A DNA stretch of 25,331 bases, from the IMG/VR virus record IMGVR_UViG_3300010355_001591. One strand, 5' to 3'. Below the pieces are notes generated by a model, which was not told where the DNA came from, did not search any database, and saw only the letters and a list, made by a program, of their open reading frames with translations. Position numbers and translations under genes: made by a program. Shown piece by piece: positions 4,915-24,631 of the stretch; the first letter of the stretch is position 1, and every line of letters begins with the position of its first letter. The DNA comes from a virus.

Positions 4915-5070
4915 TTATATTGGCATCATGCACAACCCGCATAGTTCATCGACATACTTGATCAGGTCTTGCAGTGACCGATCAAAATACGATATCATCG
5001 TATTGCAATACCATTCTGGATACGATATACATATCATGCAGTCTATTATAGCACCAAACACCTCGGCCAT
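4915..5070 (-). CDS. Small Cys-rich protein, 51 aa (MAEVFGAIIDCMICISYPEWYCNTMISYFDRSLQDLIKYVDELCGLCMMPI)
   Basis: Translated by hand; fills the gap between neighbours; CxxC twice. Confidence 0.6.
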   Translation of the reverse strand: MAEVFGAIIDCMICISYPEWYCNTMISYFDRSLQDLIKYVDELCGLCMMPI

Positions 5071-7233: not shown

Positions 7234-7407
7234 ACGTCTATATTAAGAGATCTTGAACAGATAGGGAAAGCGGCAATGGGTAAAGATACCGACTCCCCAG
7301 AATCTCCCGCTCTATATTCTGAATACCTGTTTATAAAGGCAATACAAGAGAGAAAAAAAGAGAAAAAAAGAAAAAAACAACAAAATAAAAAAGATAAAAA
7401 AGAGTGA
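7234..7407 (+). CDS. Small protein with Lys-rich tail (ACG at the start position, or ATG at 7276)
   Basis: GGAGGT RBS followed by an in-frame ACG; open to TGA at 7407. Confidence 0.4.
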   Translation, partial: TSILRDLEQIGKAAMGKDTDSPESPALYSEYLFIKAIQERKKEKKRKKQQNKKDKKE

Positions 7408-7424
7408 CCATGTCGATAATAATA
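7363..7424 (+). repeat. 62-bp direct repeat, copy 1
   Basis: Identical to 7734-7795 (...GAGTGACCATGTCGATAATAATA). Confidence 0.9.
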
Positions 7425-7430
7425 TAAAGT

Positions 7431-7661
7431 ATGAGTAAACTATCTGAACGCCGCAAAGAAAGAAGAATTAAGCAACTGAAAGAAGAAGTTGCGATATGCC
7501 GAGAAGCAGGATTTACCAATAATGAGGATATAAGCAGGATTATGCTATATAGACAACTTAACTATACAGCATCACTATTGTCTGAGAATCAGTGGATTGG
7601 CATGATCATTTTGATGCTTTTAGCATTTATAGCATTTATAATAGTAGAGCTCGCTCTTTGA
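7431..7661 (+). CDS. 76-aa protein, basic N-terminus and C-terminal TM, between the 62-bp repeats
   Basis: ORF track; hydrophobic C-terminus. Confidence 0.7.
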   Translation: MSKLSERRKERRIKQLKEEVAICREAGFTNNEDISRIMLYRQLNYTASLLSENQWIGMIILMLLAFIAFIIVELAL

Positions 7662-7733
7662 TCAAACATGATATTTATATATAGTAGTAGGTAAAAACAT
7701 AATTTTTAAAATCTATGCGTTTCAGACAAAACC

Positions 7734-7795
7734 AAAAAAAGAAAAAAACAACAAAATAAAAAAGATAAAAAAGAGTGACCATGTCGATAATAATA
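7734..7795 (+). repeat. 62-bp direct repeat, copy 2
   Basis: Identical to 7363-7424. Confidence 0.9.
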
Positions 7796-7894
7796 ACGCC
7801 GATCATTGAGTATGCATTCCAGCTTGCATATCCGCTTGGCATGTCAATAGGTACGATAATCGGTGAGTTATTGCAGTCTTTGGTGAGGGGATGA
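7781..7894 (+). CDS. Hydrophobic microprotein, 37 aa (MSIIITPIIEYAFQLAYPLGMSIGTIIGELLQSLVRG)
   Basis: Translated by hand; GAGTGA RBS; tightly packed operon. Confidence 0.6.
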   Translation: MSIIITPIIEYAFQLAYPLGMSIGTIIGELLQSLVRG

Positions 7895-7901
7895 TGATCT
7901 T

Positions 7902-8045
7902 ATGGTAGGTCTTGCTATCGATCTGTTTTGTCCGTCTCCATACGCTGTTACGCTTGTTCTATACATGATACCAAACTTCATACAAGGGCTTGTGGATGGC
8001 GTCATGGGTTCTATAAGCGTTATAACCACAAGTTTAGGGAAGTGA
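7902..8045 (+). CDS. Hydrophobic microprotein, 47 aa (MVGLAIDLFCPSP...TSLGK)
   Basis: Translated by hand; GGTGAGG RBS. Confidence 0.65.
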   Translation: MVGLAIDLFCPSPYAVTLVLYMIPNFIQGLVDGVMGSISVITTSLGK

Positions 8046-8051
8046 TCTCTC

Positions 8052-8186
8052 ATGATAATTTATGAGCTGATGATAAATGCGGTTTGCACTGCGATCACAT
8101 ATCCAGTTGAGGAGCTTCTATTAACGATAGTTGACTCGGCACAGAGGGTTTTAGCAGACGTTTTTGCTGGTCTTTTTAACCGATGA
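8052..8186 (+). CDS. Amphipathic microprotein, 44 aa (MIIYELMINAVCTAITYP...)
   Basis: Translated by hand; GGAAGTGA RBS. Confidence 0.6.
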   Translation: MIIYELMINAVCTAITYPVEELLLTIVDSAQRVLADVFAGLFNR

Positions 8187-8195
8187 TGATGTTCC

Positions 8196-8366
8196 ATGAT
8201 GATCTATCAGGGATTTTGGAATTATGCATGCGATCTTATCCAGATACCTATACAAGAGACAATCAAATGGGTTTGTCTCTCTCTCATATATTTGGATTGG
8301 ATTTCATTGGTTAAAACTGGTATGGATTCTATGATAGGATATATATCTGGAATGGTGAATAAATAA
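8196..8366 (+). CDS. Amphipathic microprotein, 56 aa (MMIYQGFWNYACDLIQIP...)
   Basis: Translated by hand; TAATG overlap with the next ORF. Confidence 0.6.
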   Translation: MMIYQGFWNYACDLIQIPIQETIKWVCLSLIYLDWISLVKTGMDSMIGYISGMVNK

Positions 8367-8575
8367 TGGATTGTGTGGCGGCATGGATAGGAAACTGTGT
8401 AGGAATGGGAGATCTTGCAATAAAGACCACACTTCTTTTATGCCCATCAATAGATCCATTATGTATCGGATTGGCTTTGCGTGAGCTAATATCGCCGGTA
8501 ATACCTAGACTGAACGAGATCGCAGCATCAGTAAGAAGCATGCTAGAAGGATTAGGCGGGTTGGTGGGAGGCTAA
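8366..8575 (+). CDS. Cys/Gly-containing hydrophobic protein, 69 aa
   Basis: ORF track; GGTGA RBS; translationally coupled. Confidence 0.7.
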   Translation: MDCVAAWIGNCVGMGDLAIKTTLLLCPSIDPLCIGLALRELISPVIPRLNEIAASVRSMLEGLGGLVGG

Positions 8576-8578
8576 AAC

Positions 8579-8806
8579 ATGGATATGGTGTTTATATTAG
8601 GCGCTGGATTTGTTGGTGATGTTGCATCGATCTGTATGTCTGATATACCGCTCTGTATCAATTGGTTCGCGGCTGCATTATCACAGACGATACCAACGTT
8701 AACATCGTTTGTTGCACCTGTGTGCGGTTATGTCATAAATGTTGGGGCTAATTTTATAGTTAGCTCTGCGTCTCAGATTGTCAATATGATTCTTGGAACG
8801 GGATGA
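8579..8806 (+). CDS. Cys-containing hydrophobic protein, 75 aa
   Basis: ORF track; GGAGG RBS. Confidence 0.7.
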   Translation: MDMVFILGAGFVGDVASICMSDIPLCINWFAAALSQTIPTLTSFVAPVCGYVINVGANFIVSSASQIVNMILGTG

Positions 8807-8812
8807 TCAGTT

Positions 8813-9034
8813 ATGGAAACAATTTTAATCGTTTGGATGTATTTATTGGTGTTGTTTGTCTTGCTGCCGCTCATCATCATATTTTTAATAATGCGGGTGC
8901 TCCCATACAATATCAAACGGCTTGAAGATAAGATTGAAGATAAGACTGATGGTGTGCGTGGCGGTATCGAAAGATTTATAAACAACATTAACGATTTAAT
9001 AGAAATAGAAATAAATAATCGTAAAAAAACATAA
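8813..9034 (+). CDS. Bitopic membrane protein, 73 aa (N-terminal TM, charged helical tail)
   Basis: ORF track; hydrophobic residues 4-30. Confidence 0.75.
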   Translation: METILIVWMYLLVLFVLLPLIIIFLIMRVLPYNIKRLEDKIEDKTDGVRGGIERFINNINDLIEIEINNRKKT

Positions 9035-9094
9035 TGATGATTTAACCAACTCACCGAGCAAGGCGTCACAAAGGATTAAAAGAGGAGATAAATC

Positions 9095-12000
9095 ATGGTT
9101 GGATTTGAAGCATTCCTGCTGTTGTGCATCGTGTTTCCGGCGATGCTCTTCCTCTTTATCCTAATCCTGTTCTTATTCTTATCGGTTTTTGTGGCGGGAT
9201 CATTCTTTATCTGCGGAACGGCAGTCTGTATTTTGCTTGTAGGAGTCTCACTGATAACAGTTCTCGGTCTCGGAGGCATAGCATCCCTTGTTTGTCTCGG
9301 ATTACTGTTCTGCACCGGACTTTGCATTTTAACGGCCGGATTTTTAACCTGTTGTAGTTTACCGTGCCTACCCTGCTTCTTATGTGCCTTGCTGATACCC
9401 CTATCGTTTGTCGGGGTTGGCATCTGTTTTGCTTTTGCATTATTCGGGCTGGCTATCCCGATCGTCTGTGTATCGATCACGATACCTGCATTTTTAATAT
9501 TCATGTTCTCAATGGCAGTTTTGCCACCCCCGCTATCCTGTCTGCTTTGCGGTTGTCTGTCTGTTCTATATATAATATATCCATTTGGTCTAATTTGTGG
9601 ATCTATTGGTGGTTTAATCGGTTGCTATTTATTCTGCGGGATTGGGTGTCTGCCAGGATGCATTATAGGATGGTTATGTGGGTTATGTCTTGATTTTGTT
9701 CTTATTTGTATAATTATCGTTGGCATCTTCATGTTTATAATAGGAGTCGTCTTCTGTATCATAGGACCATTCTTCTGCATCATAGAACCATTCCTCTGTA
9801 TCATAGGATTCATCCCATGTATCATAGGAGCCTACTTCTGTATCATAGGATTCATCCCATGTATCCTCGGACCCGTCTTCTGTATCATAGGAGCCTACTT
9901 CTGTATCATCGGAGCCGTCATCTGTATCATTCCAATATCTGGTTGGATCATCGGACCCATTATGATTATCATTGGAGCCGTCATCTGTATCATCGGAGCC
10001 TACTTCTGCATCATAGAACCATTCCTCTGTATCATAGGAGTCACCCCATGTATCATCGGAGCCGTCTTCTGTATCATAGGATTCATCCCATGTATCGCAG
10101 GAGCCGTCTTCTGTATCATAGGAGCCTACTTCTGTATCATCGGAGCCGTCTTCCGTATCATCGGACCCATTATGATTATCATTGGATCAGTCCTCATCAT
10201 TATAGGCATCTCTGCCACCTCCGCCCCGTTTTTATGTATCGCTCTCCTCCTCGCCATCGCCGTCTTCATCGTAACCAACATTATCCGCCACATCATTGAA
10301 CTCGTTCTGATCTGCCTCGTCCTTATCATCGTGCCGTGCCTAACCGTGCCGATCGTGGTGTTCGGGTTCCTGGCGATGCTGGGGTTCGCCTTATGTTTGG
10401 GGCTGATACCGTGTGTAGGGTTTGCGGTTTGTATAGGATGGATCATCTGCGGGTTTATTAGCTGGATCGGGAGCTGGCTGGGAATATTTATACTTTATAT
10501 AATATACGTGGCAATAGGAGTGGTATTCTTAATTATATTTGTAATTCTTCTTATTATAGGAATAATTGCCGCTATTTGTCAGATAGTACCTTGTATTGGA
10601 ACACCTTGTTATATGTTTATTGTGGTCTTAATGTTAATAATCCTAACAGTTTTTGCCTTGTTCTATTCAGTATATGGACCGTGCATAATGATTCTTACAA
10701 GTATATTTGGGATTTTTGCTTTCCCATTCTCAATACCAATGTTATTATTTAGCATTCTCTGGTTATTAACGGCACAAACTGTTATGACCATAGTATTTGC
10801 AATGATGATCTTTCTTGGCGCATTATTTTTATCATATTCGCCACTTACGTTTTGCCCGATCATTGGATATATAATGTTTTTCATCTTCGGTATTCCTACC
10901 CTAATTGGTGCAATCATTATTCTTGGCATACTTAGTATTATTTGCATTATCATCGCTGTAATATTTGGTGCTCTAACCCTTGCATCCGCATTCTTCTGTA
11001 ACTGGCTCGGTTTCGTAATCGTCCCGATAATCATCTTCATAGAAAGCATAATCGTTCTGGTAATCCTCGTCTCGATCATCGTGCTTATATCGGCTGCGGC
11101 ACTGCTAACAGGGATAATGTTCATAGTATCGGTCGTGGCAGTATTATGCTGTATCGGAGGGCTATTTGTCTCATCGGCACTCTGCATTACGGGGATAATC
11201 GGATCGATCGCCTGTCTCATCCTATCCATAATCGGGGCGATCTGCATCGTTCTCGGATCGATCTGTTTTATAACATTTGTCTTATCTTGTATCTGTTCGC
11301 TGGTGGTCTGTTCGCCTACCTTATTTCTTGCCTTGCTTTTAACTGGAGCGATCGGTCTCGTTCTGGCGTTAGCCATCATATTCTGTTCTCTGGTTCTCGG
11401 AGTGATGTGTCTTGCCGTAGCTCCGTTAACGCTGACTGTATCAATCATAGCGTTATCTGTGGTTCTATGCGGATTGATTGCCTTGGTGCTGGCGTTATCA
11501 ATTTTATGTGCAGGGATAACCATCGTGCTGGCGTTATGTCTGGCGGCTACACTGGCGATTATTGGCGTCTTCTTATGCTTAGCCATAATTTGTTTATCTT
11601 TGACCGCATTGGTTTTATCACTTGGAATAATCGCATCAGGTCTATTGATAATGCTATTCGGATGTTGTCTATTCCCATTCGGAGGTTTAATCTGTATAAT
11701 ACTCGGATTGAGCGTGGCATGTCTCGGATTAACCGCATTGGTCTTAGCTTTAACAACGCTTTGCTTATCATCGGCAGCCTGTTTACTACTCTCGATCGGA
11801 TTCTGTCTCACCGCTCTTTGTTGCATGATGGCAACCGCCATACCGTTCTTTACGCTTGTAATAATCTGTCTCATACTAACGATTACGTTTATAGCGGGAT
11901 CGGTGCTCTGTCTTTCCCTATTGATCCTGCTGGTTAGCATAACTGGAATTGTTGCTGCCATGCTTCTCTGTCTGTTCGGATTTATTATTTTTGCTCTCGC

Positions 12001-12448
12001 ATTATCGATTCTGACTTTAGGCTGTGCTGGTTTCACCTGTCTGATGATCTCAATAGCGTTAGCATTGGCAATAACCGCCTTAATAGCAGGAATCCTCCTC
12101 CCGATCTGCCTGATTTTAACCGCCGGAGCTTGGGGGATCTTCTTTATTCTTCTTTCAATATTGATCGGGCTGGGGATAATCTTTGGAATACTTGTTATAA
12201 TAGCATTAATTTTTATCTGTATCATTTTCTTAATCCTGTTGACGCCACCAGCTCTTTTGTTAGCCATCTGTTTGGCGTTGGTTGTTGTGGCAGCATTTGC
12301 GGCCTGTATTGTGGCTGCAATAGCAGGGCTTTATATCGTAGTAACAATCGCTCAATCTCTGCTTGTGGGCGGGGGCGGCGGTTTAAGTATGCTCTGGTCG
12401 GCTTGCTTGTCGTCTGCTCAAACAATATATGCAGGGATATTCGGATAA
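9095..12448 (+). CDS. Giant, essentially uncharged Cys-rich hydrophobic protein, 1117 aa; function unknown
   Basis: 3.35-kb uninterrupted ORF with GAGGAG RBS; hand count 0 K, 2 R, 1 D, 5 E and about 90 C. Confidence 0.85.
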   Translation: MVGFEAFLLLCIVFPAMLFLFILILFLFLSVFVAGSFFICGTAVCILLVGVSLITVLGLGGIASLVCLGLLFCTGLCILTAGFLTCCSLPCLPCFLCALLIPLSFVGVGICFAFALFGLAIPIVCVSITIPAFLIFMFSMAVLPPPLSCLLCGCLSVLYIIYPFGLICGSIGGLIGCYLFCGIGCLPGCIIGWLCGLCLDFVLICIIIVGIFMFIIGVVFCIIGPFFCIIEPFLCIIGFIPCIIGAYFCIIGFIPCILGPVFCIIGAYFCIIGAVICIIPISGWIIGPIMIIIGAVICIIGAYFCIIEPFLCIIGVTPCIIGAVFCIIGFIPCIAGAVFCIIGAYFCIIGAVFRIIGPIMIIIGSVLIIIGISATSAPFLCIALLLAIAVFIVTNIIRHIIELVLICLVLIIVPCLTVPIVVFGFLAMLGFALCLGLIPCVGFAVCIGWIICGFISWIGSWLGIFILYIIYVAIGVVFLIIFVILLIIGIIAAICQIVPCIGTPCYMFIVVLMLIILTVFALFYSVYGPCIMILTSIFGIFAFPFSIPMLLFSILWLLTAQTVMTIVFAMMIFLGALFLSYSPLTFCPIIGYIMFFIFGIPTLIGAIIILGILSIICIIIAVIFGALTLASAFFCNWLGFVIVPIIIFIESIIVLVILVSIIVLISAAALLTGIMFIVSVVAVLCCIGGLFVSSALCITGIIGSIACLILSIIGAICIVLGSICFITFVLSCICSLVVCSPTLFLALLLTGAIGLVLALAIIFCSLVLGVMCLAVAPLTLTVSIIALSVVLCGLIALVLALSILCAGITIVLALCLAATLAIIGVFLCLAIICLSLTALVLSLGIIASGLLIMLFGCCLFPFGGLICIILGLSVACLGLTALVLALTTLCLSSAACLLLSIGFCLTALCCMMATAIPFFTLVIICLILTITFIAGSVLCLSLLILLVSITGIVAAMLLCLFGFIIFALALSILTLGCAGFTCLMISIALALAITALIAGILLPICLILTAGAWGIFFILLSILIGLGIIFGILVIIALIFICIIFLILLTPPALLLAICLALVVVAAFAACIVAAIAGLYIVVTIAQSLLVGGGGGLSMLWSACLSSAQTIYAGIFG
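9755..10195 (+). repeat. Degenerate 21-bp tandem repeat (about 21 units) encoding heptads CIIG(A/P/F)xx
   Basis: TGTATCAT(A/C)GGA recurs every 21 bp; units include CIIGAYF, CIIGFIP, CIIEPFL and CIIGAVF. Confidence 0.9.
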
Positions 12449-12548
12449 AACCTTGAACAATCTCCTTTTTTGAGAAAGAAAAAACGATAATATTAAATAT
12501 TTAAATAATCTATATTTCTAATATTATAATAATAGATCAGGATAAAAT

Positions 12549-12692
12549 ATGGGCTTTATATCATGGGCAACTAATTTTGTGTGTATGTTTTGGAATGGGA
12601 TAGGAGGGTTTGCCGCTCTCAATGTAATAGGAAAACATATATTTAATCTGTTCGAATATCTTGGTAATATTGTTGCTAGCATAGGGAAGTGA
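12549..12692 (+). CDS. Amphipathic microprotein, 47 aa (MGFISWATNFVCMFWNGIGG...SIGK)
   Basis: Translated by hand; follows an AT-rich promoter-like gap. Confidence 0.6.
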   Translation: MGFISWATNFVCMFWNGIGGFAALNVIGKHIFNLFEYLGNIVASIGK

Positions 12693-12699
12693 TCTGTAA

Positions 12700-13662
12700 A
12701 TGGGCATGAGAGATAAATCTCTACAGGCATCATCTATTTTTATCGTGGTATTACTCTTAATGACCATAACCGTTCCCGTGATGACAGCACCCACTGCATC
12801 TGCTACAGCATGCAACATACTCCCTCCGTGGGGGGTGGGGATAGGCTTATGTGATTTTGTTGGATGCTGCGATGTTGTATCGATCCTAAACGTCTTCAAT
12901 TGTTTCAACCTTATAAACATTCTTGGGATTGTTGCAAACTGTTTCTCTGGAGTTAATTATTCTGTAGAATGCGGCTGGAACTTTCTATCGTATTGTATCT
13001 GGCCGTGTACTCTCTTTAACTGTTTTAACGTTCTTGATATGTTTTCTGGAAGAGTAACATGTTTCAATCTGATACAGGTGATGTCTGGGATATGCAACTT
13101 TGCTAATGTAATTGATATTCTATCTGGTGCATGTATTAATCTCATGAGCGTTGTTAAACTTGGATCTGGTCTATTTCCACCGTTCATCGCATCTGGTGGC
13201 TGTCTAAATATAGGAACTGGATGTAATCCGTGCAATCCTCTTCTTCCTGTTTGTGTTAATACGGGGTTAACAGATTGCCTAAATGTGTTATTCCTGCCAC
13301 TTACTATCATAATGTCGGTAGTATCATCGATAGCACTGCCGTTTATGTCGTTGTGGGGCACTGCTTTATCCCCGGTCTTAACTGGTATGAGTTATAATGA
13401 GATGGGTGTGGCTGTTATTGGGTGTGTAGAGAATCCAATGAGCATTATACCTATGGTTACTGGATGTATTAAATCGTTTTTATATTCGATCGGATTAATA
13501 GACATACTTGGAGATCTCGGATCTATCTGTTCCGGTTGCCTTGGCTGGATACTATCAAAAATTATGGGGTTATGCCAATCTGCTGGTGTGTTAAACTGGA
13601 TTACAAATTTCATGTTTGGATCGATGGCTAAATATCTGCCTATGAACATAGGGTTTGCGTAA
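12700..13662 (+). CDS. Signal-peptide-bearing Cys-rich hydrophobic protein, 320 aa
   Basis: N-terminal h-region ending TASA; short repeats such as NCFNLINIL/NCFNVLDMF; many Cys. Confidence 0.8.
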   Translation: MGMRDKSLQASSIFIVVLLLMTITVPVMTAPTASATACNILPPWGVGIGLCDFVGCCDVVSILNVFNCFNLINILGIVANCFSGVNYSVECGWNFLSYCIWPCTLFNCFNVLDMFSGRVTCFNLIQVMSGICNFANVIDILSGACINLMSVVKLGSGLFPPFIASGGCLNIGTGCNPCNPLLPVCVNTGLTDCLNVLFLPLTIIMSVVSSIALPFMSLWGTALSPVLTGMSYNEMGVAVIGCVENPMSIIPMVTGCIKSFLYSIGLIDILGDLGSICSGCLGWILSKIMGLCQSAGVLNWITNFMFGSMAKYLPMNIGFA

Positions 13663-13664
13663 CT

Positions 13665-14426
13665 ATGGCTAAGAGAAAAATATTCATTAAGGGAGATCCT
13701 CAACGAGAGGTTAGAGGCAAGAAGTTACAGCGTGAATCGGAAGAGATGATGCGGCAGGCTCGACCGATGATGCGGTGGATGAAATATATCAAGTATTTTA
13801 TGCCACTGATGATCATTGCGTTCATATTTATGATCTTGATGTTCATCCCCGGATCTCCTGTCATGGGCTGGATGATGAAGAATATCATGGGTAACATGTT
13901 TAAAAGCGAGGCAGGGGCAGCTGATATACTAAACCCAGATTCTCCGATGTTTAAAAAAATGATGGAGAACATGGAGACAAACCCGGAATGGATGAAATCA
14001 ATGATCGAACAACATCCGGAGATGCTCGAGGGAGTGATAGATGAAAGAATGATGAAGAACATGATGAACGCCGATACGATCGAGACGATGATCACCGCAA
14101 TGCCTCCAGAAACGATGAACAAGATGATGGCTCAAATGATGAAAGATAACCCAGCAATGCTACAGGATATGATGACCGATATGATCAAGAACAACCCGCA
14201 GATGCTGCAATCGATGTTCTCAAACATGGATGAGGCTACGATGAACCAGATGTTCTCCACGATTATGAAAGACTATAACATGGTAATGACGGGTGGAGAG
14301 ATGGTGATCAAGTTGCCTCCAGATACAGCCAAACTGATAGGTCACGAGTATGTGGTGGTAGAGATCACGAGCGATATGGGCATGAAAGATATGCAGTTCT
14401 CTATGCAGAAAAAACAAAATACTTAA
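13665..14426 (+). CDS. Met-rich (about 20%) membrane-anchored helical-repeat protein, 253 aa
   Basis: TM FMPLMIIAFIFMILMFIP; repeated MMxxNP(E/A/Q)ML motifs; about 50 Met by hand count. Confidence 0.85.
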   Translation: MAKRKIFIKGDPQREVRGKKLQRESEEMMRQARPMMRWMKYIKYFMPLMIIAFIFMILMFIPGSPVMGWMMKNIMGNMFKSEAGAADILNPDSPMFKKMMENMETNPEWMKSMIEQHPEMLEGVIDERMMKNMMNADTIETMITAMPPETMNKMMAQMMKDNPAMLQDMMTDMIKNNPQMLQSMFSNMDEATMNQMFSTIMKDYNMVMTGGEMVIKLPPDTAKLIGHEYVVVEITSDMGMKDMQFSMQKKQNT

Positions 14427-14511
14427 ATATATCGTTAATGATAATATAATATTCAATCATCAAAATATATAGATTAGTTAATAAATAAAATAGATACAAT
14501 ATAGATATAAT

Positions 14512-14742
14512 ATGGACACGTTCTGTGCATTTTTGAGCTGTGCAAGCACATGGATTGGAAATATTAGCATTATTACATCGCTAATAGAGACATATCTTGG
14601 CGGAACATTATCTGCATTGGTTGGTGGTGGCTGCTCAACTATAATAGATCAGAGTATTGCATTTATCGCTCCTCCAATACAGGCATGTTTTACGACAGTT
14701 GGTTCAATAATAAGTAAAATTATCGCTGCGATAGGAGTATAA
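14512..14742 (+). CDS. Hydrophobic Cys-containing protein, 76 aa
   Basis: ORF track; follows a promoter-like AT tract. Confidence 0.7.
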   Translation: MDTFCAFLSCASTWIGNISIITSLIETYLGGTLSALVGGGCSTIIDQSIAFIAPPIQACFTTVGSIISKIIAAIGV

Positions 14743-14745
14743 AAG

Positions 14746-15195
14746 ATGGGTGCGATATTGGGCAGTATAGTAGCTGGAATGATAAGTATTATTGGAGAGT
14801 TACTTGGTGGAATGGTTGGTGCTGGGATTGGCTGTATGAAATCAACTGTGATGGACGTTGGGATACCCGGAATATTTAGTATATTTTCAACAGTAATTGG
14901 TGGTGGTGCTGGAACATTACTTGGTGGTGGTGCTGGAACATTACTTGGTGGTGGAATGGGATCTATAATAGGTATTATAGGAACAGCATTAGGAGGCATA
15001 GGAACAGCATTAGGAGGCATAGGTACAATGTTTGGGGGTATGGGATTGATTCCAAGCATTCTGGGTTTAGTTCTCGGAGGTATTGGTGGTATCGGTGGTA
15101 GTGCACTGAATTTACTTCTAAATGTATTCTCAATGATTGAACCAATAATCGGCTCAGTTGTTGCGGCACTGATTGGTCTTATACCAATCATTTAG
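14746..15195 (+). CDS. Gly-rich hydrophobic (GxxxG, glycine-zipper-like) protein, 149 aa
   Basis: AGGAG RBS; internal tandem repeats. Confidence 0.8.
   Translation: MGAILGSIVAGMISIIGELLGGMVGAGIGCMKSTVMDVGIPGIFSIFSTVIGGGAGTLLGGGAGTLLGGGMGSIIGIIGTALGGIGTALGGIGTMFGGMGLIPSILGLVLGGIGGIGGSALNLLLNVFSMIEPIIGSVVAALIGLIPII
14897..15027 (+). repeat. Two in-frame tandem duplications (24 bp x2+ and 21 bp x2+)
   Basis: TTGGTGGTGGTGCTGGAACATTAC at 14897 and 14921; ATAGGAACAGCATTAGGAGGC at 14977 and 14998. Confidence 0.9.
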
Positions 15196-15241
15196 GTATA
15201 TCATCTAAAAACATTAAAATTAAAAATAAGAGGATCTAAAA

Positions 15242-15565
15242 ATGTGCATGACAACAGGGATATGTAGTGGTCTGATAGGTATATCTTCAGCGGTTTGCTC
15301 AATATGTTTTGGTGGTATTGCATCAATACTCGGTATATTTGGGTTGTTATCAGCTTGTGGTATTGGTGTCTGCGGCGTATTTGGGTTTGGTTCTATAATG
15401 GCTTGTATGCTCGGGATTGGAGCAGTGCTTGGATTATTTGGTACAACAATCGCAATGATTCTGGGAGATTCTACAATTGCAGGCTATCTAAGCTATTTCC
15501 AAACATTTATTACACAAGGAGGGAATCTGTTTGATGCGTGCCGGATTTGTATCGCAGGGAAATAA
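15242..15565 (+). CDS. Cys/Gly-rich hydrophobic protein, 107 aa
   Basis: GAGGA RBS; ends CRICIAGK. Confidence 0.75.
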   Translation: MCMTTGICSGLIGISSAVCSICFGGIASILGIFGLLSACGIGVCGVFGFGSIMACMLGIGAVLGLFGTTIAMILGDSTIAGYLSYFQTFITQGGNLFDACRICIAGK

Positions 15566-15572
15566 ACGGTCT

Positions 15573-15719
15573 ATGGCATCACTAATTATAGATGATGCAG
15601 CGATAGCGACCGGGTATCAAGTGATCAATCTTGGTATTGTCTTATTTGGTACAACAATGAGCGAAGGCATGAAATGTATTAGTCTATTATATCGGTGGTG
15701 CTGGGGCGGAGTTGTTTAA
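15573..15719 (+). CDS. Hydrophobic microprotein, 48 aa (MASLIIDDAAIATG...RWCWGGVV)
   Basis: 3' part of track ORF 15531-15719; start reassigned to follow the previous stop. Confidence 0.55.
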   Translation: MASLIIDDAAIATGYQVINLGIVLFGTTMSEGMKCISLLYRWCWGGVV

Positions 15720-15768
15720 GCAAAAATGATAAATGAAAGATAAATTAAAAACGAGGTGATTTTAAATT

Positions 15769-15924
15769 ATGGCAGGAATTGTATTTGGGGCGTTAGGAAT
15801 GATTACCGGCAGCATTGGTGCATTGCTTGGATCATTAAGCACATGCACAATAATGATTGATAGGATTGCCGATATTGCATCAAACCTAATAGAATGTTGT
15901 TTTGTGGGTATTCCATATTATTAA
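15769..15924 (+). CDS. Hydrophobic microprotein, 51 aa (MAGIVFGALGMITG...IECCFVGIPYY)
   Basis: Translated by hand; GAGGTGA RBS. Confidence 0.7.
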   Translation: MAGIVFGALGMITGSIGALLGSLSTCTIMIDRIADIASNLIECCFVGIPYY

Positions 15925-15951
15925 TAATAATCAAAATAAGAGGATAAAATA

Positions 15952-17424
15952 ATGAGAACTAAGATAAAGACAATAGGAATCGTACTGATAATAGCGGTAT
16001 TCTGTCTGTCGGTAGCGATGCCTTTTGCTAATGTTGCTAATGGTCAGACGTTCACGCCAAACCAAAAAGCAGAGCCAAGAGTTACGGTAAACGTTCCACT
16101 GGAGAATAAAGAGCTGGGTGCTATTCAGCAGGGTGCTATCTTAATATTTGATCAGTCGGTTACAGTAAACGGTATTTATGACTCGTACGATCAGATATTT
16201 AAAGAGGTAAAGGGTGATATCAATCTAACAGGCACATCAATAGACACAAAGGGTCTCAAGACTGGTTATTATGTTGCATATACAGGAAAGACCTATGAGG
16301 TTTTCAAAATAATAGAACCGATCCCTGAGGATGCTTTTATATCGCTCATAGAGATTGATCGGGTAAGCACGATGGGAGATACGGTAAAGATAACTGGTGA
16401 GTCAAACCTTAAAAACAATCTAACGGCGGTCATAAGAGACGATCGTGGGCGTGAGTACAATATGACAGGCGTTCAGGTATCTTCTGACGGCAAGTTTGAT
16501 ATTGAGATCAACACGAAGAACCTGCAGGCGGGGAGCTATTCTGTTTTAATCTATTGCGATAATGATAAGAACATTCAGGCAGTAGCCCCTCTATTGCTCA
16601 CAGAACCACAGCTGATGCTTAATGCAGATGCAAGGACAACTGTTCAGGGAGATATAAAGATAGAAGGATCTGCGGAAGGAGCTAAGAAAGTAGAGGTGTG
16701 GCTGGTCGGCAATGGATTGGCAGGATATACTCAACTGATTGTCAAAGAGGATGGGACGTTCAGCGAGACAGTACAGCCGTTAAACTTCACGTTTTACGAC
16801 AGGAACGGCATGATCTCCCCGATCAAGCAACTGAGCAGAGGGACGTATGATGTTCTGATAGTGCATCCCGGCACGGATGGATTCTATCATTATGATGGGA
16901 CGATAGAAGGTACTGGCAAGTTGTTATCTTACCCTGACGGTATAAGCAAGTTTACGACCAACCAGTCAGTATCGAATAATTATGATATAATCAACAGGGT
17001 TAAACTAACCGTTGATCTGCCAACGATAGCAATAGACAAAGTAGAGTTATCACAGGATGGCACTCTTCTTGTCATGGGATCTACTAACATACACGATGGG
17101 CAGAAGAGGATTATCGTAATGATGAACGGCATCCAATACTTCACGGACATTCAGGGAGGCAGGTTTACGCTGATGCTCGAGGGAGTGCCTGCGGGGCAAT
17201 ATAGGATTGAGGCGTATGATATAGATAACACGGCTTACGCATCTGGTACCTTCAATGTGTCAATAGCACCACCGACTCCTGCTGTATCAGAACAAACAAC
17301 CACGGTATCACAACCACTGCCAGAGGAGGAAAAAGGTGCATTCAACATTTGGTGGATAATCATCGTTATATTAATCGTAGTAATAGCGTTTGCGGTTTAT
17401 GTATTCTTCTTTAAAAAGCAATAA
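15952..17424 (+). CDS. Secreted, C-terminally anchored Ig-like surface glycoprotein resembling Methanomicrobia S-layer-type proteins, 490 aa
   Basis: Sec signal; GDTVKITGESN, IEGSAEGAKKVEVWLVG, GTYDVLIVHP and GSTN beta-sandwich motifs; six NxS/T sequons; Pro/Thr linker, TM, KKQ. Confidence 0.7.
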   Translation: MRTKIKTIGIVLIIAVFCLSVAMPFANVANGQTFTPNQKAEPRVTVNVPLENKELGAIQQGAILIFDQSVTVNGIYDSYDQIFKEVKGDINLTGTSIDTKGLKTGYYVAYTGKTYEVFKIIEPIPEDAFISLIEIDRVSTMGDTVKITGESNLKNNLTAVIRDDRGREYNMTGVQVSSDGKFDIEINTKNLQAGSYSVLIYCDNDKNIQAVAPLLLTEPQLMLNADARTTVQGDIKIEGSAEGAKKVEVWLVGNGLAGYTQLIVKEDGTFSETVQPLNFTFYDRNGMISPIKQLSRGTYDVLIVHPGTDGFYHYDGTIEGTGKLLSYPDGISKFTTNQSVSNNYDIINRVKLTVDLPTIAIDKVELSQDGTLLVMGSTNIHDGQKRIIVMMNGIQYFTDIQGGRFTLMLEGVPAGQYRIEAYDIDNTAYASGTFNVSIAPPTPAVSEQTTTVSQPLPEEEKGAFNIWWIIIVILIVVIAFAVYVFFFKKQ

Positions 17425-17442
17425 AAAGATGAAGAAGAGAAG

Positions 17443-17604
17443 ATGACCACTACAAAAGACAAAATAATTGTTGAAAAACAAAAATGTGATTGGTGTGGGT
17501 ACGAGTGGTATCCCAGATCAACTTCTGGGTTTAATCCCGTTCAGTGCCCACGCTGTCACAAATATATTAATATTGATCTAAAAAGTCAAAAAAGTAAAAA
17601 GTAA
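17443..17604 (+). CDS. Zinc-ribbon microprotein, 53 aa
   Basis: Translated by hand: CDWCGYEWYPR...CPRC. Confidence 0.8.
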   Translation: MTTTKDKIIVEKQKCDWCGYEWYPRSTSGFNPVQCPRCHKYINIDLKSQKSKK

Positions 17605-17624
17605 ACAAGGAGATGAAAGATTAA

Positions 17625-17906
17625 ATGAGCGGAATTTTAGCTAGTATATTTTGTTGTGGATTGCCACAGGCGTGTACAACTGCCCTTATATCAAATGTTT
17701 GCGGTAACACGATAGCAAACGCATGTGGTAACTCTATTGCTGGGTTGATACCTTCACTATCAACATTCTGTACAGGCATTCTCGGATCGTGTTCTACAAT
17801 CTGTGGATCTTTGGCAGGATTGATTGGTGGAGTTCTTGGCGGAGGTAGCTCTGGCGGTGCAACAAGTGGTTTGCCTGCTGTAATGAGCCAAGCCACTGGT
17901 AAATGA
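17625..17906 (+). CDS. Cys/Gly-rich hydrophobic protein, 93 aa
   Basis: AGGAG RBS; FCCGLP; ends ATGK. Confidence 0.75.
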   Translation: MSGILASIFCCGLPQACTTALISNVCGNTIANACGNSIAGLIPSLSTFCTGILGSCSTICGSLAGLIGGVLGGGSSGGATSGLPAVMSQATGK

Positions 17907-18039
17907 ACGGTGAATCCGATAACCATCGTAAGATATGATTTTTTTATGATGGTTCATCGCTGAATATCGTTGAATATTATAATCCTAACCAAAATAATAT
18001 ATAATGGTTGTTTAATAAATATAAAGAGGTGAAATAAAA

Positions 18040-18150
18040 ATGGGTGCTTTAGCTAACACAATTTTGGGGTATGTTATAGTTCTCCAAAACGAGATATATC
18101 GGGTGATTACAAAAGGACTTCAGGGGATAAATCTCGGAGGTGGTAAGTGA
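18040..18150 (+). CDS. Microprotein, 36 aa (MGALANTILGYVIVLQNEIYRVITKGLQGINLGGGK)
   Basis: Translated by hand; GAGGTGA RBS. Confidence 0.65.
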   Translation: MGALANTILGYVIVLQNEIYRVITKGLQGINLGGGK

Positions 18151-18272
18151 TGGGAATAATTCAATTATGCTGTCCAATACCATCGGTCGCAGTATTTGAT
18201 CAATTAGTTCGGAGCGCAGGAAACATAGGAATTGGTTTGATGCAGTCCTTATCAAAACTGATTGGGTTGTAA
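18150..18272 (+). CDS. Microprotein, 40 aa (MGIIQLCCPIPSVAVF...)
   Basis: Translated by hand; TGATG overlap; GGAGGTGG RBS. Confidence 0.65.
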   Translation: MGIIQLCCPIPSVAVFDQLVRSAGNIGIGLMQSLSKLIGL

Positions 18273-18343
18273 TTACAGAGTTTTTATTTTTAAATTATTT
18301 AATTTAAACAAAATATAAAAAATTTAAAGAGGTGTATTAGAGA

Positions 18344-18571
18344 ATGGCAAAAGCATTTGACATACAAGGCATAATGTATTTAGCAATCGGATTAATCATT
18401 ACGGGTGCTCTACTTCCAGTATCTTTGAACATGTTCACAAGTGCAGATATTGATTTTACAGGATCGTTGTCTGGGCTTGAGAATCTCTGGTCGTTAATAC
18501 CCATGATGGTTGTTCTTGCAATAGCGATTGCAGTTATATATTACGCCATGGACTCTATGAGAAACCAGTAA
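18344..18571 (+). CDS. Spindle-shaped virus major capsid protein-like (SSV1 VP1/VP3, His1 type), 75 aa
   Basis: Two hydrophobic helices (LAIGLIITGALLP and LWSLIPMMVVLAIAIAVIYY) joined by a short polar linker, matching the VP1 pattern GIVLLPV...LLNLVP..IL; flanked by AT-rich promoter-like and T-rich terminator-like tracts. Confidence 0.75.
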   Translation: MAKAFDIQGIMYLAIGLIITGALLPVSLNMFTSADIDFTGSLSGLENLWSLIPMMVVLAIAIAVIYYAMDSMRNQ

Positions 18572-18621
18572 GTCCAGATAGCACAATATGATTGCAAGAC
18601 TGGTAATAGCGAATAATTTAC

Positions 18622-18640
18622 ATTATTTTTTAATTTTTTC
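18622..18640 (+). terminator. T-rich terminator-like tract after the first MCP gene
   Basis: ATTATTTTTTAATTTTTTC. Confidence 0.4.
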
Positions 18641-18681
18641 AAATTCTATATATAAAGTAAAAATAGCAAGATGCGAAGAAT

Positions 18682-18984
18682 ATGAAATTAATGAAAACAA
18701 CCAGGGATTTTATTCATGATGATAACGGGGCATTCACCCTCAAAGAGATGGTAGAGGCAATTATTGCTCTCGGAGTGGGCATCATTCTTGCTGGGATACT
18801 TTTACCGATTGCGTTTCAGATGTTTGGTGGATTGCCAGAGAATCTGGCGGTTGGACCAGATATGCAGCCGACACTATTGGCGACCATCTGGGGATACATA
18901 CCTGTTATAGTTGTTGTAATGCTCATGATCGGATTGATATTTGCTATTATCGGCTGGTTCGGCGGCGGGGAAGAAGGATCATAA
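18682..18984 (+). CDS. Second MCP paralogue with a class III (prepilin-like) leader, 100 aa
   Basis: GIILAGILLPI...IWGYIPVIVVVMLMIG parallels MCP1; leader RDFIHDDNG/AFTLKE. Confidence 0.7.
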   Translation: MKLMKTTRDFIHDDNGAFTLKEMVEAIIALGVGIILAGILLPIAFQMFGGLPENLAVGPDMQPTLLATIWGYIPVIVVVMLMIGLIFAIIGWFGGGEEGS

Positions 18985-19003
18985 CAATATAGGAGGTACA
19001 ATA

Positions 19004-19171
19004 ATGAGTAATTTTAATTTCAAATCTTTTTTAACAAACGATGACGGAATAGGCGGATTGTTAGATTCTATGATTGCGTATTGGGGTCCAGTAATGCAGG
19101 CGTGTGCTGCTGAGATGGGCATAATTATTAAAACTGTCATATTAGCAATAGGAATAACCGGAGGCAAGTAA
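19004..19171 (+). CDS. 55-aa hydrophobic protein with the same leader type (KSFLTNDDG/IGGLL)
   Basis: ATG at 19004 follows GGAGGT; ends TGGK. Confidence 0.7.
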   Translation: MSNFNFKSFLTNDDGIGGLLDSMIAYWGPVMQACAAEMGIIIKTVILAIGITGGK

Positions 19172-19172
19172 A

Positions 19173-19295
19173 ATGGCAATACCATATTTAATAATCTCGT
19201 CATGTATGCCCTCATCGCAGATGATGGTTTATCTCATTCAATCAGTATTTGGATCTCTATCTTTGTTTTTGCAACAAGTTGCATCAGCACTATGA
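19173..19295 (+). CDS. Hydrophobic microprotein, 40 aa (MAIPYLIISSCMPSSQMMVYLIQSVF...)
   Basis: Translated by hand; GGAGG RBS; no D/E/K/R. Confidence 0.6.
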   Translation: MAIPYLIISSCMPSSQMMVYLIQSVFGSLSLFLQQVASAL

Positions 19296-19329
19296 AGACT
19301 GGTATAAACATGGTAAAGATGAGGCAATT

Positions 19330-20235: not shown

Positions 20236-20236
20236 G

Positions 20237-21118: not shown

Positions 21119-21136
21119 AACACGAGATGATAAGAT

Positions 21137-21436: not shown

Positions 21437-21441
21437 TATAA

Positions 21442-23221: not shown

Positions 23222-23228
23222 GGTAAAA

Positions 23229-23354: not shown

Positions 23355-23370
23355 TGGAAGATGATTTAAG

Positions 23371-23733: not shown

Positions 23734-23770
23734 ATAGTATTAAATATTAATAATAAGGAGTGATAATAAA

Positions 23771-24263: not shown

Positions 24264-24344
24264 TTAAAAAAATGAACTTATCAGACTCATTATGATCTGG
24301 ATAGGCGACATGCACGCCTGACCAAACATGCTCATTATATCCAT
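24264..24344 (-). CDS. Microprotein, 26 aa (MDIMSMFGQACMSPIQIIMSLISSFF)
   Basis: Translated by hand; perfect GGAGGTGA RBS. Confidence 0.55.
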   Translation of the reverse strand: MDIMSMFGQACMSPIQIIMSLISSFF

Positions 24345-24375
24345 TTTATTCTTCACCTCCAAAATTATTTCATTT

Positions 24376-24504
24376 TTAACAACACAACAAAACATTCTTT
24401 AATTCTTTTAGCGGATACATTAATATTGTAGTTACGTTCTCTACAAGCACTCGTATCATTGATGTATATGCAGATAATACAGATACTGACAAAAATGCTA
24501 CCAT
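24376..24504 (-). CDS. Microprotein, 42 aa (MVAFLSVSVLSAYTSMIRVLVENVTTILMYPLKELKNVLLCC)
   Basis: Translated by hand; the same 20-bp RBS/start cassette as 24341-24360 recurs at 24501-24520. Confidence 0.6.
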   Translation of the reverse strand: MVAFLSVSVLSAYTSMIRVLVENVTTILMYPLKELKNVLLCC

Positions 24505-24505
24505 T

Positions 24506-24631
24506 TTATTCTTCACCTCCCTTTTTTTCTATTTTAACCAAGCTTCTACAGTCTGGGCATGTAGCATATACTGACTTTGCACCGGTATATTCCCATTCAT
24601 TTCCGCATTTTTTGCATTTTAGCAATACCAT
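24506..24631 (-). CDS. Zinc-ribbon microprotein, 41 aa
   Basis: Translated by hand: MVLLKCKKCGNEWEYTGAKSVYATCPDCRSLVKIEKKGGEE. Confidence 0.8.
   Translation of the reverse strand: MVLLKCKKCGNEWEYTGAKSVYATCPDCRSLVKIEKKGGEE

Follow-up and report, generated by a model that had tools for sequence, protein, structure and literature searches.

The small ORFs clustered around the capsid genes of this virus are genuine genes: they are under selection, linked in an operon, orphan, and compositionally distinct. Their coordinates are listed in Table 1, and ORFs are referred to by the first coordinate given there, with (-) indicating the minus strand.

Table 1. Features of the array and its surroundings. 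SD, Shine-Dalgarno sequence; SW, Smith-Waterman; TM, transmembrane. Relatives are given by their L numbers; codon positions list the changes at each position.
Coordinates	Strand	Feature	Basis	Further observations
4915..5070	-	51-aa ORF, two CxxC pairs	early region	
7781..7894	+	37-aa hydrophobic peptide	first gene behind 62-nt promoter-like repeat	identical copy in L001; ortholog L006 307-420 (SW z 10.6); best of six frames in codon model
7902..8045	+	47-aa peptide, N-terminal L-F-C-P-x-P motif, core gene	dN/dS 0.12 vs L001	ortholog L006 422 (SW z 17.7)
8052..8186	+	44-aa peptide, paralog of 8196	dN/dS 0.25	z ~6 to paralog; L006 718 (z 6.7)
8196..8366	+	56-aa peptide, paralog of 8052	dN/dS 0.19 vs L001 3313	
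8366..8575	+	69-aa peptide, 4 Cys	orthologs L001 3511 (z 10.7), L006 973 (z 6.3)	SD GGTGA; start overlaps 8196 stop
8579..8806	+	75-aa TM-type peptide, 3 Cys	SD GGAGG	weak matches to L006 1212 (z 4.5) and L001 3737/3991 (z 5.4-6.5)
8813..9034	+	73-aa protein, N-terminal TM helix and charged helical tail	ortholog L006 1400 (z 15.9)	absent from the original list
9095..14426	+	accessory module inside the array	comparison with relatives	
12549..12692	+	47-aa peptide	ORF intact in L024 (89% nt)	11 synonymous, 14 non-synonymous changes; codon positions 9, 4, 12; constraint judged moderate
14512..14742	+	76-aa peptide, 4 Cys, variable cassette, paralog of 19004	comparison with L025	vs L025: 17 synonymous, 3 non-synonymous; codon positions 2, 1, 17
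14746..15195	+	149-aa glycine-zipper-like protein, 29% Gly	strain comparison	24- and 21-nt strain indels in frame; codon positions 9, 4, 16; codon score 0.39 (best); positional analog L006 7607 / L019 3449, dN/dS 0.31
15242..15565	+	107-aa protein, 9 Cys, 21 Gly	synonymous SNPs	4/4 SNPs synonymous in L004; codon positions 5, 0, 6 vs L025; single 95%-identical cluster, 7 contigs
15573..15719	+	48-aa peptide (62 aa if TTG 15531)	ORF kept in L025/L026	codon positions 12, 2, 13 vs L025/L026
15769..15924	+	51-aa peptide, C-terminal CC	SD GAGGTGAT	11 synonymous, 4 non-synonymous; codon positions 1, 3, 11
17625..17906	+	93-aa Cys/Gly-rich protein, conserved C-C-G-[LM]-P motif, core gene	dN/dS 0.27-0.31	six Cys positions kept in three full-length orthologs; + frame outscores antisense frame
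18040..18150	+	36-aa peptide, core gene	dN/dS 0.12-0.19	78-86% identity to L001 and L002 copies
18150..18272	+	40-aa peptide, L-C-C-P-I-P motif	dN/dS 0.05-0.18	ortholog L006 14333 (z 14.7)
18344..18571 and 18682..18984	+	two capsid-protein paralogs	Pfam His1_capsid PF25665	
19004..19171	+	55-aa peptide, N-terminal leader as in capsid paralog 2	ortholog L001 8781 (z 15)	
19173..19295	+	40-aa peptide, zero charged residues	SD GGAGG	97.5% identity in L002; 2/2 SNPs synonymous in L004
23771..24055	+	94-aa protein, 9 Cys, leader shared with 19004, CC/CFCC motifs	dN/dS 0.18 vs L001 13393	
24264..24395	-	43-aa hydrophobic peptide, integrase strand	ortholog L006 10439 (z 7.9)	L001 match partial
24376..24516	-	46-aa ORF, unsupported	codon score 0.19	

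The virus and its genome

The stretch of DNA that was analyzed (25,331 nt, referred to as the window) has a GC content of 39% and contains 235 ORFs of at least 30 aa. Its ends overlap by 127 nt, so the genome is circular, and it is complete with ~25.2 kb. By its gene content, the window is the genome of a spindle-shaped archaeal virus with a capsid protein of the His1/SSV type. Capsid paralog 18344 matches PF25665 (E=8e-8; 32.6 bits vs a cut-off of 27), and the match of paralog 2 (18682) is below threshold (E=1.7e-3). Domain searches of the ORFs also identified a D5-type primase-helicase, a Dam methylase and an integrase. The virus is linked to Methanoliparia-like archaea of oil and sludge habitats. 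A literature search did not retrieve any publication describing this virus group.

Reality and conservation of the small genes

All 17 ORFs that had been predicted between 7781 and 19295 are present, as are 23771 and 24264(-). For four ORFs, start codons upstream of the annotated ones are possible (GTG at 7775, TTG at 15531, GTG at 18147 and TTG at 18941). The array genes are tightly packed on the plus strand, co-directional with both capsid genes, and the coding density of plus-strand genes is 94% over 7431-24055. The original prediction had attributed their own translation signals to most of these ORFs, and an SD match of at least 5 nt was found for 19 of the 34 late genes (3.9 +/- 1.9 at random positions). 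The G-K-stop end of 12549 contains the SD of 12700; a search upstream of 15573 did not reveal an SD.

Conservation was checked in relatives from independent metagenomes, and a coding-type pattern was found for all of these ORFs, 23771 and 24264(-) included, with the exception of 8579. Eight small ORFs have dN/dS values of 0.05-0.31. In the cassette ORFs (see below), compared with relatives that are 89-93% identical, third-position or synonymous changes dominate and indels stay in frame. Positional analogs in the L006/L019 clade likewise show coding-type conservation, and independent assemblies hold near-identical copies of array genes. For 7781 and 12549 there is little comparative support, and 8579 has weak matches only.

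It might be argued that a considerable fraction of the listed ORFs is noncoding, having arisen by chance in T-rich DNA or as antisense shadows. Chance ORFs of 36-47 aa are indeed expected at this GC content and with this number of ORFs in the window, 17625, 14746 and the giant gene for a 1117-aa protein have open ORFs on their antisense strand, and the codon model separates weakly (null 95th percentile 0.16, with several candidates at 0.06-0.14). However, the comparative support just described extends to every ORF in the span except 8579, and in strand tests the plus frames have higher amino acid identity than the antisense frames, with the second codon position being most conserved. We thus consider this explanation extremely improbable, and the sequence comparisons refute it for most of the listed ORFs.

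Many of these genes had been suspected to fall below gene-calling thresholds. This proved correct: of the 17 small ORFs delimited in the relative L001, 8 had been called by the JGI pipeline, the counterpart of 8196 being among those missed. At 17625 and at the 1117-aa gene, public pipelines annotated antisense ORFs instead. Contigs from RNA libraries of three studies span the entire operon, and 8579 is covered with zero differences; as contigs without a DNA control, they provide a weak hint of transcription.

Composition, motifs and membrane character

The 21 listed peptides (1304 residues) are rich in Cys (4.8%) and Gly (13.7%), as predicted, and the corresponding values for the other window proteins are 0.7% and 6.3%, with 28.5% DEKR. 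They are also near-uncharged, with net charges from -5 to +3, and the small peptides have a GRAVY of ~1. GxxxG is enriched in this set, with 43 occurrences against an expected 28.8 +/- 4.4 (P=0.001), and Gly residues also recur at i+7 more often than expected (P=0.015). CC is weakly enriched (7 observed vs 3.2, P=0.03), and no enrichment was found for CxxC (5 observed vs 3.1). Cys motifs were also described as recurring, which is limited by the fact that only about half of the peptides have at least two Cys. In the family alignments, 9 of 23 Cys columns are invariant, compared to 144 of 589 other columns. Gly-zipper-type repeats make up much of 14746, 15242, 17625 and 23771.

The designation as membrane peptides holds for part of the set. 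When both capsid proteins, 8813, 5618(-) and 7431 are added to the listed ORFs, giving 26 small candidates, a hydrophobic segment of TM length is found in 13. The remainder is not clearly transmembrane and is still hydrophobic or amphipathic.

Families, core set and variable cassette

The peptides were thought not to be alignable to each other, but some of them are: 8052 aligns with 8196, 14512 with 19004 and 23771 (hhalign 91% for 14512 with the 19004 family), and 7902 with 18150 (hhalign 34%, indicating weak paralogy with the family of 18150). An N-terminal leader (K-N-[DE]-D-A) is common to 19004, 23771 (hhalign 89%) and capsid paralog 2. Instead of the single system that had been proposed, hhalign and the relatives reveal about 15 unrelated orphan families, of which some form a conserved core and others a cassette that is swapped. 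Known families, which might have accounted for the peptides, were not matched: searches against Pfam (18 peptides scanned) and PHROGs gave no match at a significant E-value. The 17625 family, which was searched exhaustively, has only four clusters among 1.84 billion proteins. None of the 18 scanned peptides matches the capsid family PF25665, whose members are two-helix hairpins of ~75 aa, the best hhalign probability to this family being 20% among the small-peptide families of the window and its relatives. AlphaFold models are of low confidence (pLDDT 45 and 38.5, respectively, for the families of 17625 and of the 320-aa protein described below).

The core set comprises 7781, 7902, 8052/8196, 8366, 8579, 8813, 17625, 18040, 18150, 19004, 19173, 23771 and 24264(-), and is kept across diverged relatives. 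The strain-variable cassette, as delimited by comparison with relatives, consists of 12549, 14512, 14746, 15242, 15573 and 15769. In L001 and L006, this region (12549-15769) is occupied by unrelated small hydrophobic genes, and the flanks are kept. Cassette sequences are thus replaced between strains while their composition is kept (Cys 4-6.5%, Gly 10-15%, charged residues ~7%). The same applies to the non-homologous arrays as such (L001: Cys 6.5%, Gly 10.3%; L006: Cys 5.1%, Gly 14.1%).

The accessory module codes for the 1117-aa protein (near-uncharged and Cys-rich), the 12549 peptide, a 320-aa exported Cys-rich protein and a 253-aa Met-rich protein. It is found in the window, in L003/L004 and in L006, and is missing in L001. 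Plus-strand coding is indicated by an amino acid identity of 0.56 (antisense 0.41) and by the second codon position being most conserved. The family of the 320-aa protein also occurs on archaeal chromosomes.

Comparison with known systems

The original prediction held that spindle-shaped viruses usually carry only a few small hydrophobic structural proteins. This is not the case for His1 (Halspiviridae), which has eight TM-type ORFs of 32-99 aa around its capsid gene (ORF10, 13, 17, 22, 24, 25, 28 and 34). When ORFs are counted that are co-directional with the capsid gene, have at most 150 aa and contain at least one TM-length hydrophobic segment, the 8 in 14.5 kb of His1 compare to 13 in 25.2 kb of the window, where about 10 more peptides are hydrophobic without such a segment. 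His1 ORF22, a hydrophobic 32-aa peptide with 3 Cys encoded just 3' of the capsid gene, resembles 18150 and 19173. However, the His1 set has 1.0% Cys and 6.3% Gly (3.9% and 14.7% in the window set), and the His1 record annotates neither a strain-variable cassette nor a giant uncharged protein nor a shared leader. SSV1 (Fuselloviridae) encodes VP3, B78, A82 and others near its capsid genes, which are hydrophobic proteins of 54-102 aa with 2-3 TM segments. By the same count it has five in 15.5 kb, with 0.5% Cys. Similarity to His1 or SSV1 ORFs was not detected (best SW z 3.5 among 242 pairs). What is unusual relative to His1 is the Cys/Gly richness and the strain swapping, not the density of small genes. 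The array is most likely a stronger form of a feature already present in other spindle-shaped viruses.

With their GxxxG and i+7 Gly enrichment, the peptides are also reminiscent of transmembrane glycine zippers (GxxxGxxxG, PF05433). The match of 23771 to PF05433 (E=0.16, 12.3 bits) is far under the cut-off of 24.2 bits, and the likeness is one of packing principle, not of family membership.

Possible functions

We favor, with somewhat better than even confidence, the view that these are membrane-embedded or membrane-associated proteins of the morphogenetic (late) operon, being minor parts of the virion or of its assembly. Since the genes sit in the capsid-protein operon, it is plausible that their products function in the membrane or in the virion. 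The peptides would insert into the host membrane, as does the hydrophobic capsid protein, and helices may pack against each other via small residues (Gly, Cys, Ala, Ser) on GxxxG faces. They could then become minor constituents of the virion, or organize a membrane patch for budding. Membrane insertion, a role of Cys and presence in the virion are inferred, the last of these only from gene position and the shared leader. The best candidates for virion parts would be 18150, 19004 and 23771; in four genomes (window, L001, L002 and L006), a gene of the 18150 family immediately precedes the capsid gene. For the variable cassette, a function at the host envelope is probable, be it adsorption, exclusion or evasion of recognition by the host. 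Counting against this explanation, half of the peptides have no clear TM-length segment, and the cassette turns over fast, as would fit host-interaction factors that do not have to be packaged.

Such factors could be non-structural and remain unpackaged, being made in the infected or lysogenic cell for superinfection exclusion, receptor masking, viroporin- or holin-like egress, or anti-defence. The replacement of the cassette between kept flanks is typical of host-interaction genes, and the archaeal homologs of the neighboring 320-aa exported protein suggest envelope mimicry or modification. However, the genes are located inside the capsid operon and do not adjoin the integrase or early genes, core members are as strongly conserved as the capsid proteins, and the leader of 19004 and 23771 is that of capsid paralog 2. 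Holins usually have one to three TM domains with a charged cytoplasmic tail at the C-terminus, and their genes adjoin that of a lytic enzyme. The array peptides do not have such tails, a TM domain with a charged tail being found only in 8813 among the small ORFs. The large ORFs of the window revealed no lytic enzyme domain, and holin HMMs from Pfam and PHROGs gave no match, holins being too diverse for exclusion by HMM. Overall, we consider it rather unlikely that the peptides are non-structural factors. Secreted membrane-active peptides (archaeocin- or bacteriocin-like) or RiPP precursors that kill competitors are highly improbable, even though the peptides are small, hydrophobic, Gly/Cys-rich and encoded in an array. 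Gly-rich microcins and Cys-rich hydrophobic halocins may be loosely similar in composition. The proposed bacteriocin-like battery would come without an array-wide leader, exporter, immunity gene or cationic charge: a double-glycine cleavage motif was not seen by eye, the large ORFs of the window contain neither an exporter nor a peptidase domain (C39 included), an immunity gene and a modifying enzyme are also missing from the window, and net charges are neutral to slightly negative. The lack of Pfam and PHROG matches also argues against it. An identity as class II bacteriocins or microcins, in which a conserved leader ends in GG, GA or GS and a C39-peptidase ABC exporter is dedicated to the peptide, was rejected, as the sole shared leader ends with D-D-A/G and is also found on a capsid paralog. 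An array of RiPP precursors was likewise rejected: the families are unrelated over their full length, rather than having a leader and a variable core, and the window has no modifying enzyme. A LuxE-like gene is encoded elsewhere in L006.

Finally, we speculate, as a long shot, that the Cys/Gly peptides and the 1117-aa protein form a lipid-like hydrophobic layer that consists only of protein and is locked by thiol, persulfide or metal-sulfide bonds. This layer would belong to the virion or the assembly site, with the conserved cysteines of the CC, C-C-P and C-C-G-L-P motifs forming the bridges. If so, selection on composition rather than sequence would explain the free swapping between strains, and sulfur bridges would suit sulfidic, anoxic oil habitats.

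Outlying minus-strand ORFs

Two ORFs that had been assigned to the array were removed from it. No homolog of 24376(-) was found in the relatives, and its codon score is low. The other, 4915(-), has a net charge of -5 and lacks a TM-length segment. It is identical in L001, hence uninformative, and with its CxxC pairs it is likely to be a small zinc protein encoded in the early region.

The virus genome

The window carries a perfect 127-nt direct repeat at its ends, an assembly overlap that closes it to a circle; the genome size is thus about 25,204 bp. Plus-strand genes make up 94% of the sequence from 7431 to 24055. A D5-type primase-helicase, a Dam methylase, an SSV-type integrase and two capsid paralogs are encoded (see table). 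No close DNA relative was found among 50,697 phage records, nor was the capsid protein matched in these by tblastn, and a literature search returned no paper on this virus group. Near-identical sequence occurs in runs X1-X20. These metagenomes stem from 13 studies and cover activated sludge, soil, oil fields, crude oil, wastewater, marine sites and microbial mats. An exact 62-nt A-rich direct repeat, also kept in the relative L001, resembles a duplicated promoter or leader. Copy one lies 5' of gene 7431, and copy two holds the start of 7781; the same ATG in copy one opens a mere 5-codon mini-ORF.

Features of the window and of related sequences
Feature	Sequence	Coordinates	Strand	Remark
Terminal direct repeat	window	1-127 = 25205-25331		127 nt, perfect
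D5-type primase-helicase	window	2537-3937
A-rich direct repeat	window	7363-7424; 7734-7795		62 nt, exact
1117-aa protein	window	9095-12448	+
1131-aa protein	L006	1699-5094	+
Tandem repeat in 1117-aa gene	window	9674-10224		17 units of 21 nt
12549	window			cassette; syn/non-syn 11/14; codon positions [9,4,12]; vs closer strains
320-aa family	window	12700-13662
320-aa family	L009	9980-10870
320-aa family	L010	3188-4057
320-aa family	L013	4967-5404
IS-truncated 320-aa copy with transposase gene	L013	4967-6446		Methanolliviera MAG
14512	window			cassette; 17/3; [2,1,17]
14746	window			cassette; 14/15; [9,4,16]
14746 deletions	window	14897-14920; 14977-14997		vs L024
14746 deletions	window	14932-14955; 15007-15027		vs L025/L026
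15242	window			cassette; 6/5; [5,0,6]
15573	window			cassette; 14/13; [12,2,13]
15769	window			cassette; 11/4; [1,3,11]
Zinc-ribbon protein	window	17443-17604		CxxC...CxxC
Zinc-ribbon tandem duplicate	L001	7194-7445		one ORF
Capsid paralog, first	window	18344-18571	+	Pfam His1_capsid, above threshold, E=8e-8, 32.6 bits
Capsid paralog 2	window	18682-18984	+	Pfam His1_capsid, below threshold, E=1.7e-3
Leader sites	window	18682-18741; 19004-19048; 23771-23809
Leader site	L006	14447-14500
Dam methylase	window	21442-22281
Basic 41-aa protein	window	23229-23354
SSV-type integrase	window	24692-25252	-	PHROG integrase, E=2.7e-23
LuxE-like gene	L006	12414-13781		PF04443

Coding evidence for the small genes

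The small genes are real, under selection and SD-coupled, and they are located in the capsid operon. Every small ORF listed in the original prediction exists at its position, and the proposed dN/dS analysis across relatives was carried out. The relatives come from independent metagenomes: L001 is a 20.7-kb syntenic genome and L002 an 8-kb fragment, L003 and L004 are copies of 10283-19789 (99.5-99.8% identical), L024, L025 and L026 are 89-93% identical to the window, and L006 and L019 form a far more diverged clade, with L006 binned with a Candidatus Methanolliviera MAG. Against L001 or L002, dN/dS is 0.05-0.31 for seven core ORFs (7902, 0.12; 8052, 0.25; 8196, 0.19; 17625, 0.27-0.31; 18040, 0.12-0.19; 18150, 0.05-0.18; 23771, 0.18), and 0.25 for a 293-aa control in the same comparison. 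Orthologs of 7781, 7902, 8052, 8366, 8813, 17625, 18150 and 24264 are found in L006 (Smith-Waterman z 6.3-17.7), and 8579 has a weak match there (z 4.5). Substitutions in the cassette ORFs against closer strains are listed in the table. SNPs are synonymous throughout for 15242 in L004 (4/4) and for 19173 (2/2). The ORF of 12549 is unbroken in L024, with only moderate constraint. Three related strains lack 24 and 21 nt, in frame, within the Gly-rich repeats of 14746, the number of which varies between strains. 24376(-) has no support as a gene. An SD-like site stands before 19 of the 34 late genes, compared to 3.9 +/- 1.9 at random positions.

It had been expected that many of these genes escape gene callers. 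This applies to about half of the genes in one relative, which public pipelines overlooked. A further warning for annotation is that antisense ORFs were called opposite two hydrophobic genes, 17625 and the 1117-aa gene; at the latter locus, a public MAG annotation has four antisense genes (152, 80, 266 and 531 aa). These ORFs are artefacts: amino acid identity is higher in the plus frame both for 17625 (0.66 vs 0.51) and for the 1117-aa gene (0.56 vs 0.41), and only in the plus frames does the second codon position show the highest conservation. Such comparative tests were preferred because a codon-usage model, which was dropped as a strand test, discriminates weakly and favours the antisense frame for very hydrophobic genes.

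A read-through fusion of 7902, 8052 and 8196, which share one frame with TGA between them, was rejected: the three do not keep this frame relation in L001, and every one is preceded by an SD of its own. A functional signal in the C-terminal G-K was also rejected, as this is mostly the SD of the next gene within the stop region (GGG AAG TGA TC); an identical 11-mer with this sequence ends both 7902 and 12549. This account does not cover the G-K end of 17625, behind which no gene follows directly.

Contigs that span the late operon, its blocks of small ORFs included, come from RNA libraries of three studies (oil field, crude oil, activated sludge), and some of them match the window without a difference. 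The libraries contain several strains with many variant positions. Being assembled and coming without a DNA control, the contigs are no more than a hint of transcription. The stretch 10135-16371, uncovered in RNA run X18, was given no weight.

Composition and membrane character

The products have a helix-packing Gly periodicity and conserved Cys. The 21 listed peptides contain 4.8% Cys and 13.7% Gly, with net charges from -5 to +3, while the remaining window proteins contain 0.7% Cys, 6.3% Gly and 28.5% charged residues. Of the recurring motifs that had been proposed, GxxxG occurs more often than in within-peptide shuffles (43 vs 28.8 +/- 4.4, P=0.001), CC is weakly enriched (7 vs 3.2 expected, P=0.03) and CxxC is not. 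Spacing of i+7 is also enriched, which together with GxxxG places Gly on one helix face. Invariance is more frequent among Cys columns (9 of 23) than among other columns (144 of 589). A TM-length segment by a strict test (19-residue window, mean Kyte-Doolittle >= 1.6) is present in 13 of 26 small candidates, so the proposed label "membrane peptide" is safe for about half; the others are hydrophobic or amphipathic. The AlphaFold2 model of the 17625 family is helical, at low confidence (pLDDT 45.4). 4915(-), with two CxxC pairs and a net charge of -5, resembles the small zinc proteins that archaeal viruses often encode. A small zinc-ribbon protein is encoded between a 490-aa surface protein and 17625, and it is a tandem duplicate inside one ORF in L001 and L002.

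Relationships among the peptides and to known proteins

Kinship was assessed by Smith-Waterman comparison against shuffles and by hhalign between 28 family alignments. These yielded few links, so the array comprises about 15 unrelated families rather than one expanded family. The peptides had been described as not alignable to each other by eye; the links obtained join 8052 and 8196, 14512 and 19004 (hhalign 91%), 19004 and 23771 (89%, via an N-terminal leader ending K-N-[DE]-D-A), 19173 and 24264 (49%), and 7902 and 18150 (34%, L-[FC]-C-P-x-P start). Three proteins have the leader M-[RK]-x-I-[KR]-E-[LM]-[FL]-K-N-D-D-A or -K-D: the capsid protein of L006, 23771 and the ortholog of 19004 in L001. 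In the window, 19004 and capsid paralog 2 retain only its end (D-D-x-G); paralog 2 of L001 has K-N-E-D-A. This leader may serve as a shared signal for processing or targeting.

As predicted, the peptides do not map to known unrelated families in Pfam or PHROG: 20 were scanned, without a significant match. The 17625 profile retrieved 4 clusters among 1.84 billion proteins, and 15242 a single cluster (95% identical). No match was obtained in IMG/VR with the 1117-aa protein, 14746 or the 293-aa alignment, nor in GTDB genomes with the latter, and the ESM Atlas gave no usable match to 14746 and 23771. By the same TM criterion, the spindle-shaped viruses His1 and SSV1 have 8 small TM-type ORFs in 14.5 kb (Cys 1.0%) and 5 in 15.5 kb (Cys 0.5%), respectively, none of which resembles a window peptide. 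His1 ORF22, directly downstream of the His1 capsid gene, is a 32-aa, 3-Cys peptide. The small-TM gene class has precedent; its composition, number and swapping in the present virus are new.

A conserved core beside a swapped cassette

Nucleotide identity between L001 and the window is 92-99% in the early/replication half and 66-72% in the late half, and the middle block is replaced. Such strong mosaicism implies recent recombination between diverged lineages. L001 lacks 8813, the 1117-aa, 320-aa and 253-aa genes and the entire cassette; their place is taken by eight different small genes for Cys-rich hydrophobic products. L006 and L019 retain the large genes, yet their cassette is different; it is under purifying selection (dN/dS 0.18-0.31 in three of four tested ORFs, 0.48 in the fourth). 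Neither L001 nor L006 has counterparts of the window cassette. The composition is upheld across the arrays (L001: Cys 6.5%, Gly 10.3%; L006: Cys 5.1%, Gly 14.1%). The virus group is a natural experiment, in which a conserved core stands beside a cassette with swapped sequences but the same odd composition. A LuxE-like acyl-protein synthetase gene is present in L006 and absent from the window.

Charged residues make up 0.7% and Cys 8-9% of the 1117-aa protein (1131 aa in L006); its plus strand is conserved, with 56% amino acid identity across the C-terminal part. Tandem 21-nt units occur within its gene. The exported, Cys-rich 320-aa protein is the only one with cellular relatives. The family is well conserved, with motifs such as N-Y-S-V-E-C-G-W-N-F and T-G-C-N-P-C-N, but the viral protein has no Pfam match, and the AlphaFold2 model is of low confidence (pLDDT 38.5). 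Relatives are encoded in Euryarchaeota archaeon UBA287 and further contigs, beside ribosomal-protein and FtsZ genes; the copy in a Methanolliviera MAG is IS-truncated (145 aa) and adjoins a DDE transposase gene (DUF772 / DDE_Tnp_1). These occurrences point to alkane-degrading Methanoliparia-like archaea as probable hosts. In two contigs, the 320-aa homolog is directly followed by 46-aa, 72/76-aa and 898/1331-aa hydrophobic ORFs. The 46-aa ORF was rejected as a relative of the 8052 family (hhalign probability 0.1%), as was the 1331-aa protein as a relative of the viral 1117-aa protein (no similarity).

Possible roles

Capsids of spindle-shaped viruses are built from membrane-derived hydrophobic proteins, and minor components shape, close and target the particles. 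We propose that the small peptides would enter the host membrane, as the capsid protein does, and would then be built into the particle or set up the site from which it buds. The best virion candidates are 18150, whose nearest downstream neighbour in four genomes is the capsid gene, and 19004 and 23771, which share the leader with a capsid paralog. The turnover of the cassette fits an action at the host surface. The peptides had alternatively been considered bacteriocin-like. Such a role, as bacteriocin or RiPP precursors, is disfavoured: a leader common to the array is missing, as are exporter, immunity gene and modifying enzyme, and so is positive charge. As to the Cys in the proposed particle components, locking by disulfides is questionable where the habitat is sulfidic, and metal or persulfide bridging is conceivable. 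Should these Cys turn out to form crosslinks or to bind metals, virions would be stabilised in reducing habitats by a new means.

A 41-aa highly basic protein is under very strong constraint (dN/dS 0.02-0.03) and is encoded upstream of a 120-aa basic protein. Both may function in genome packaging or DNA binding.
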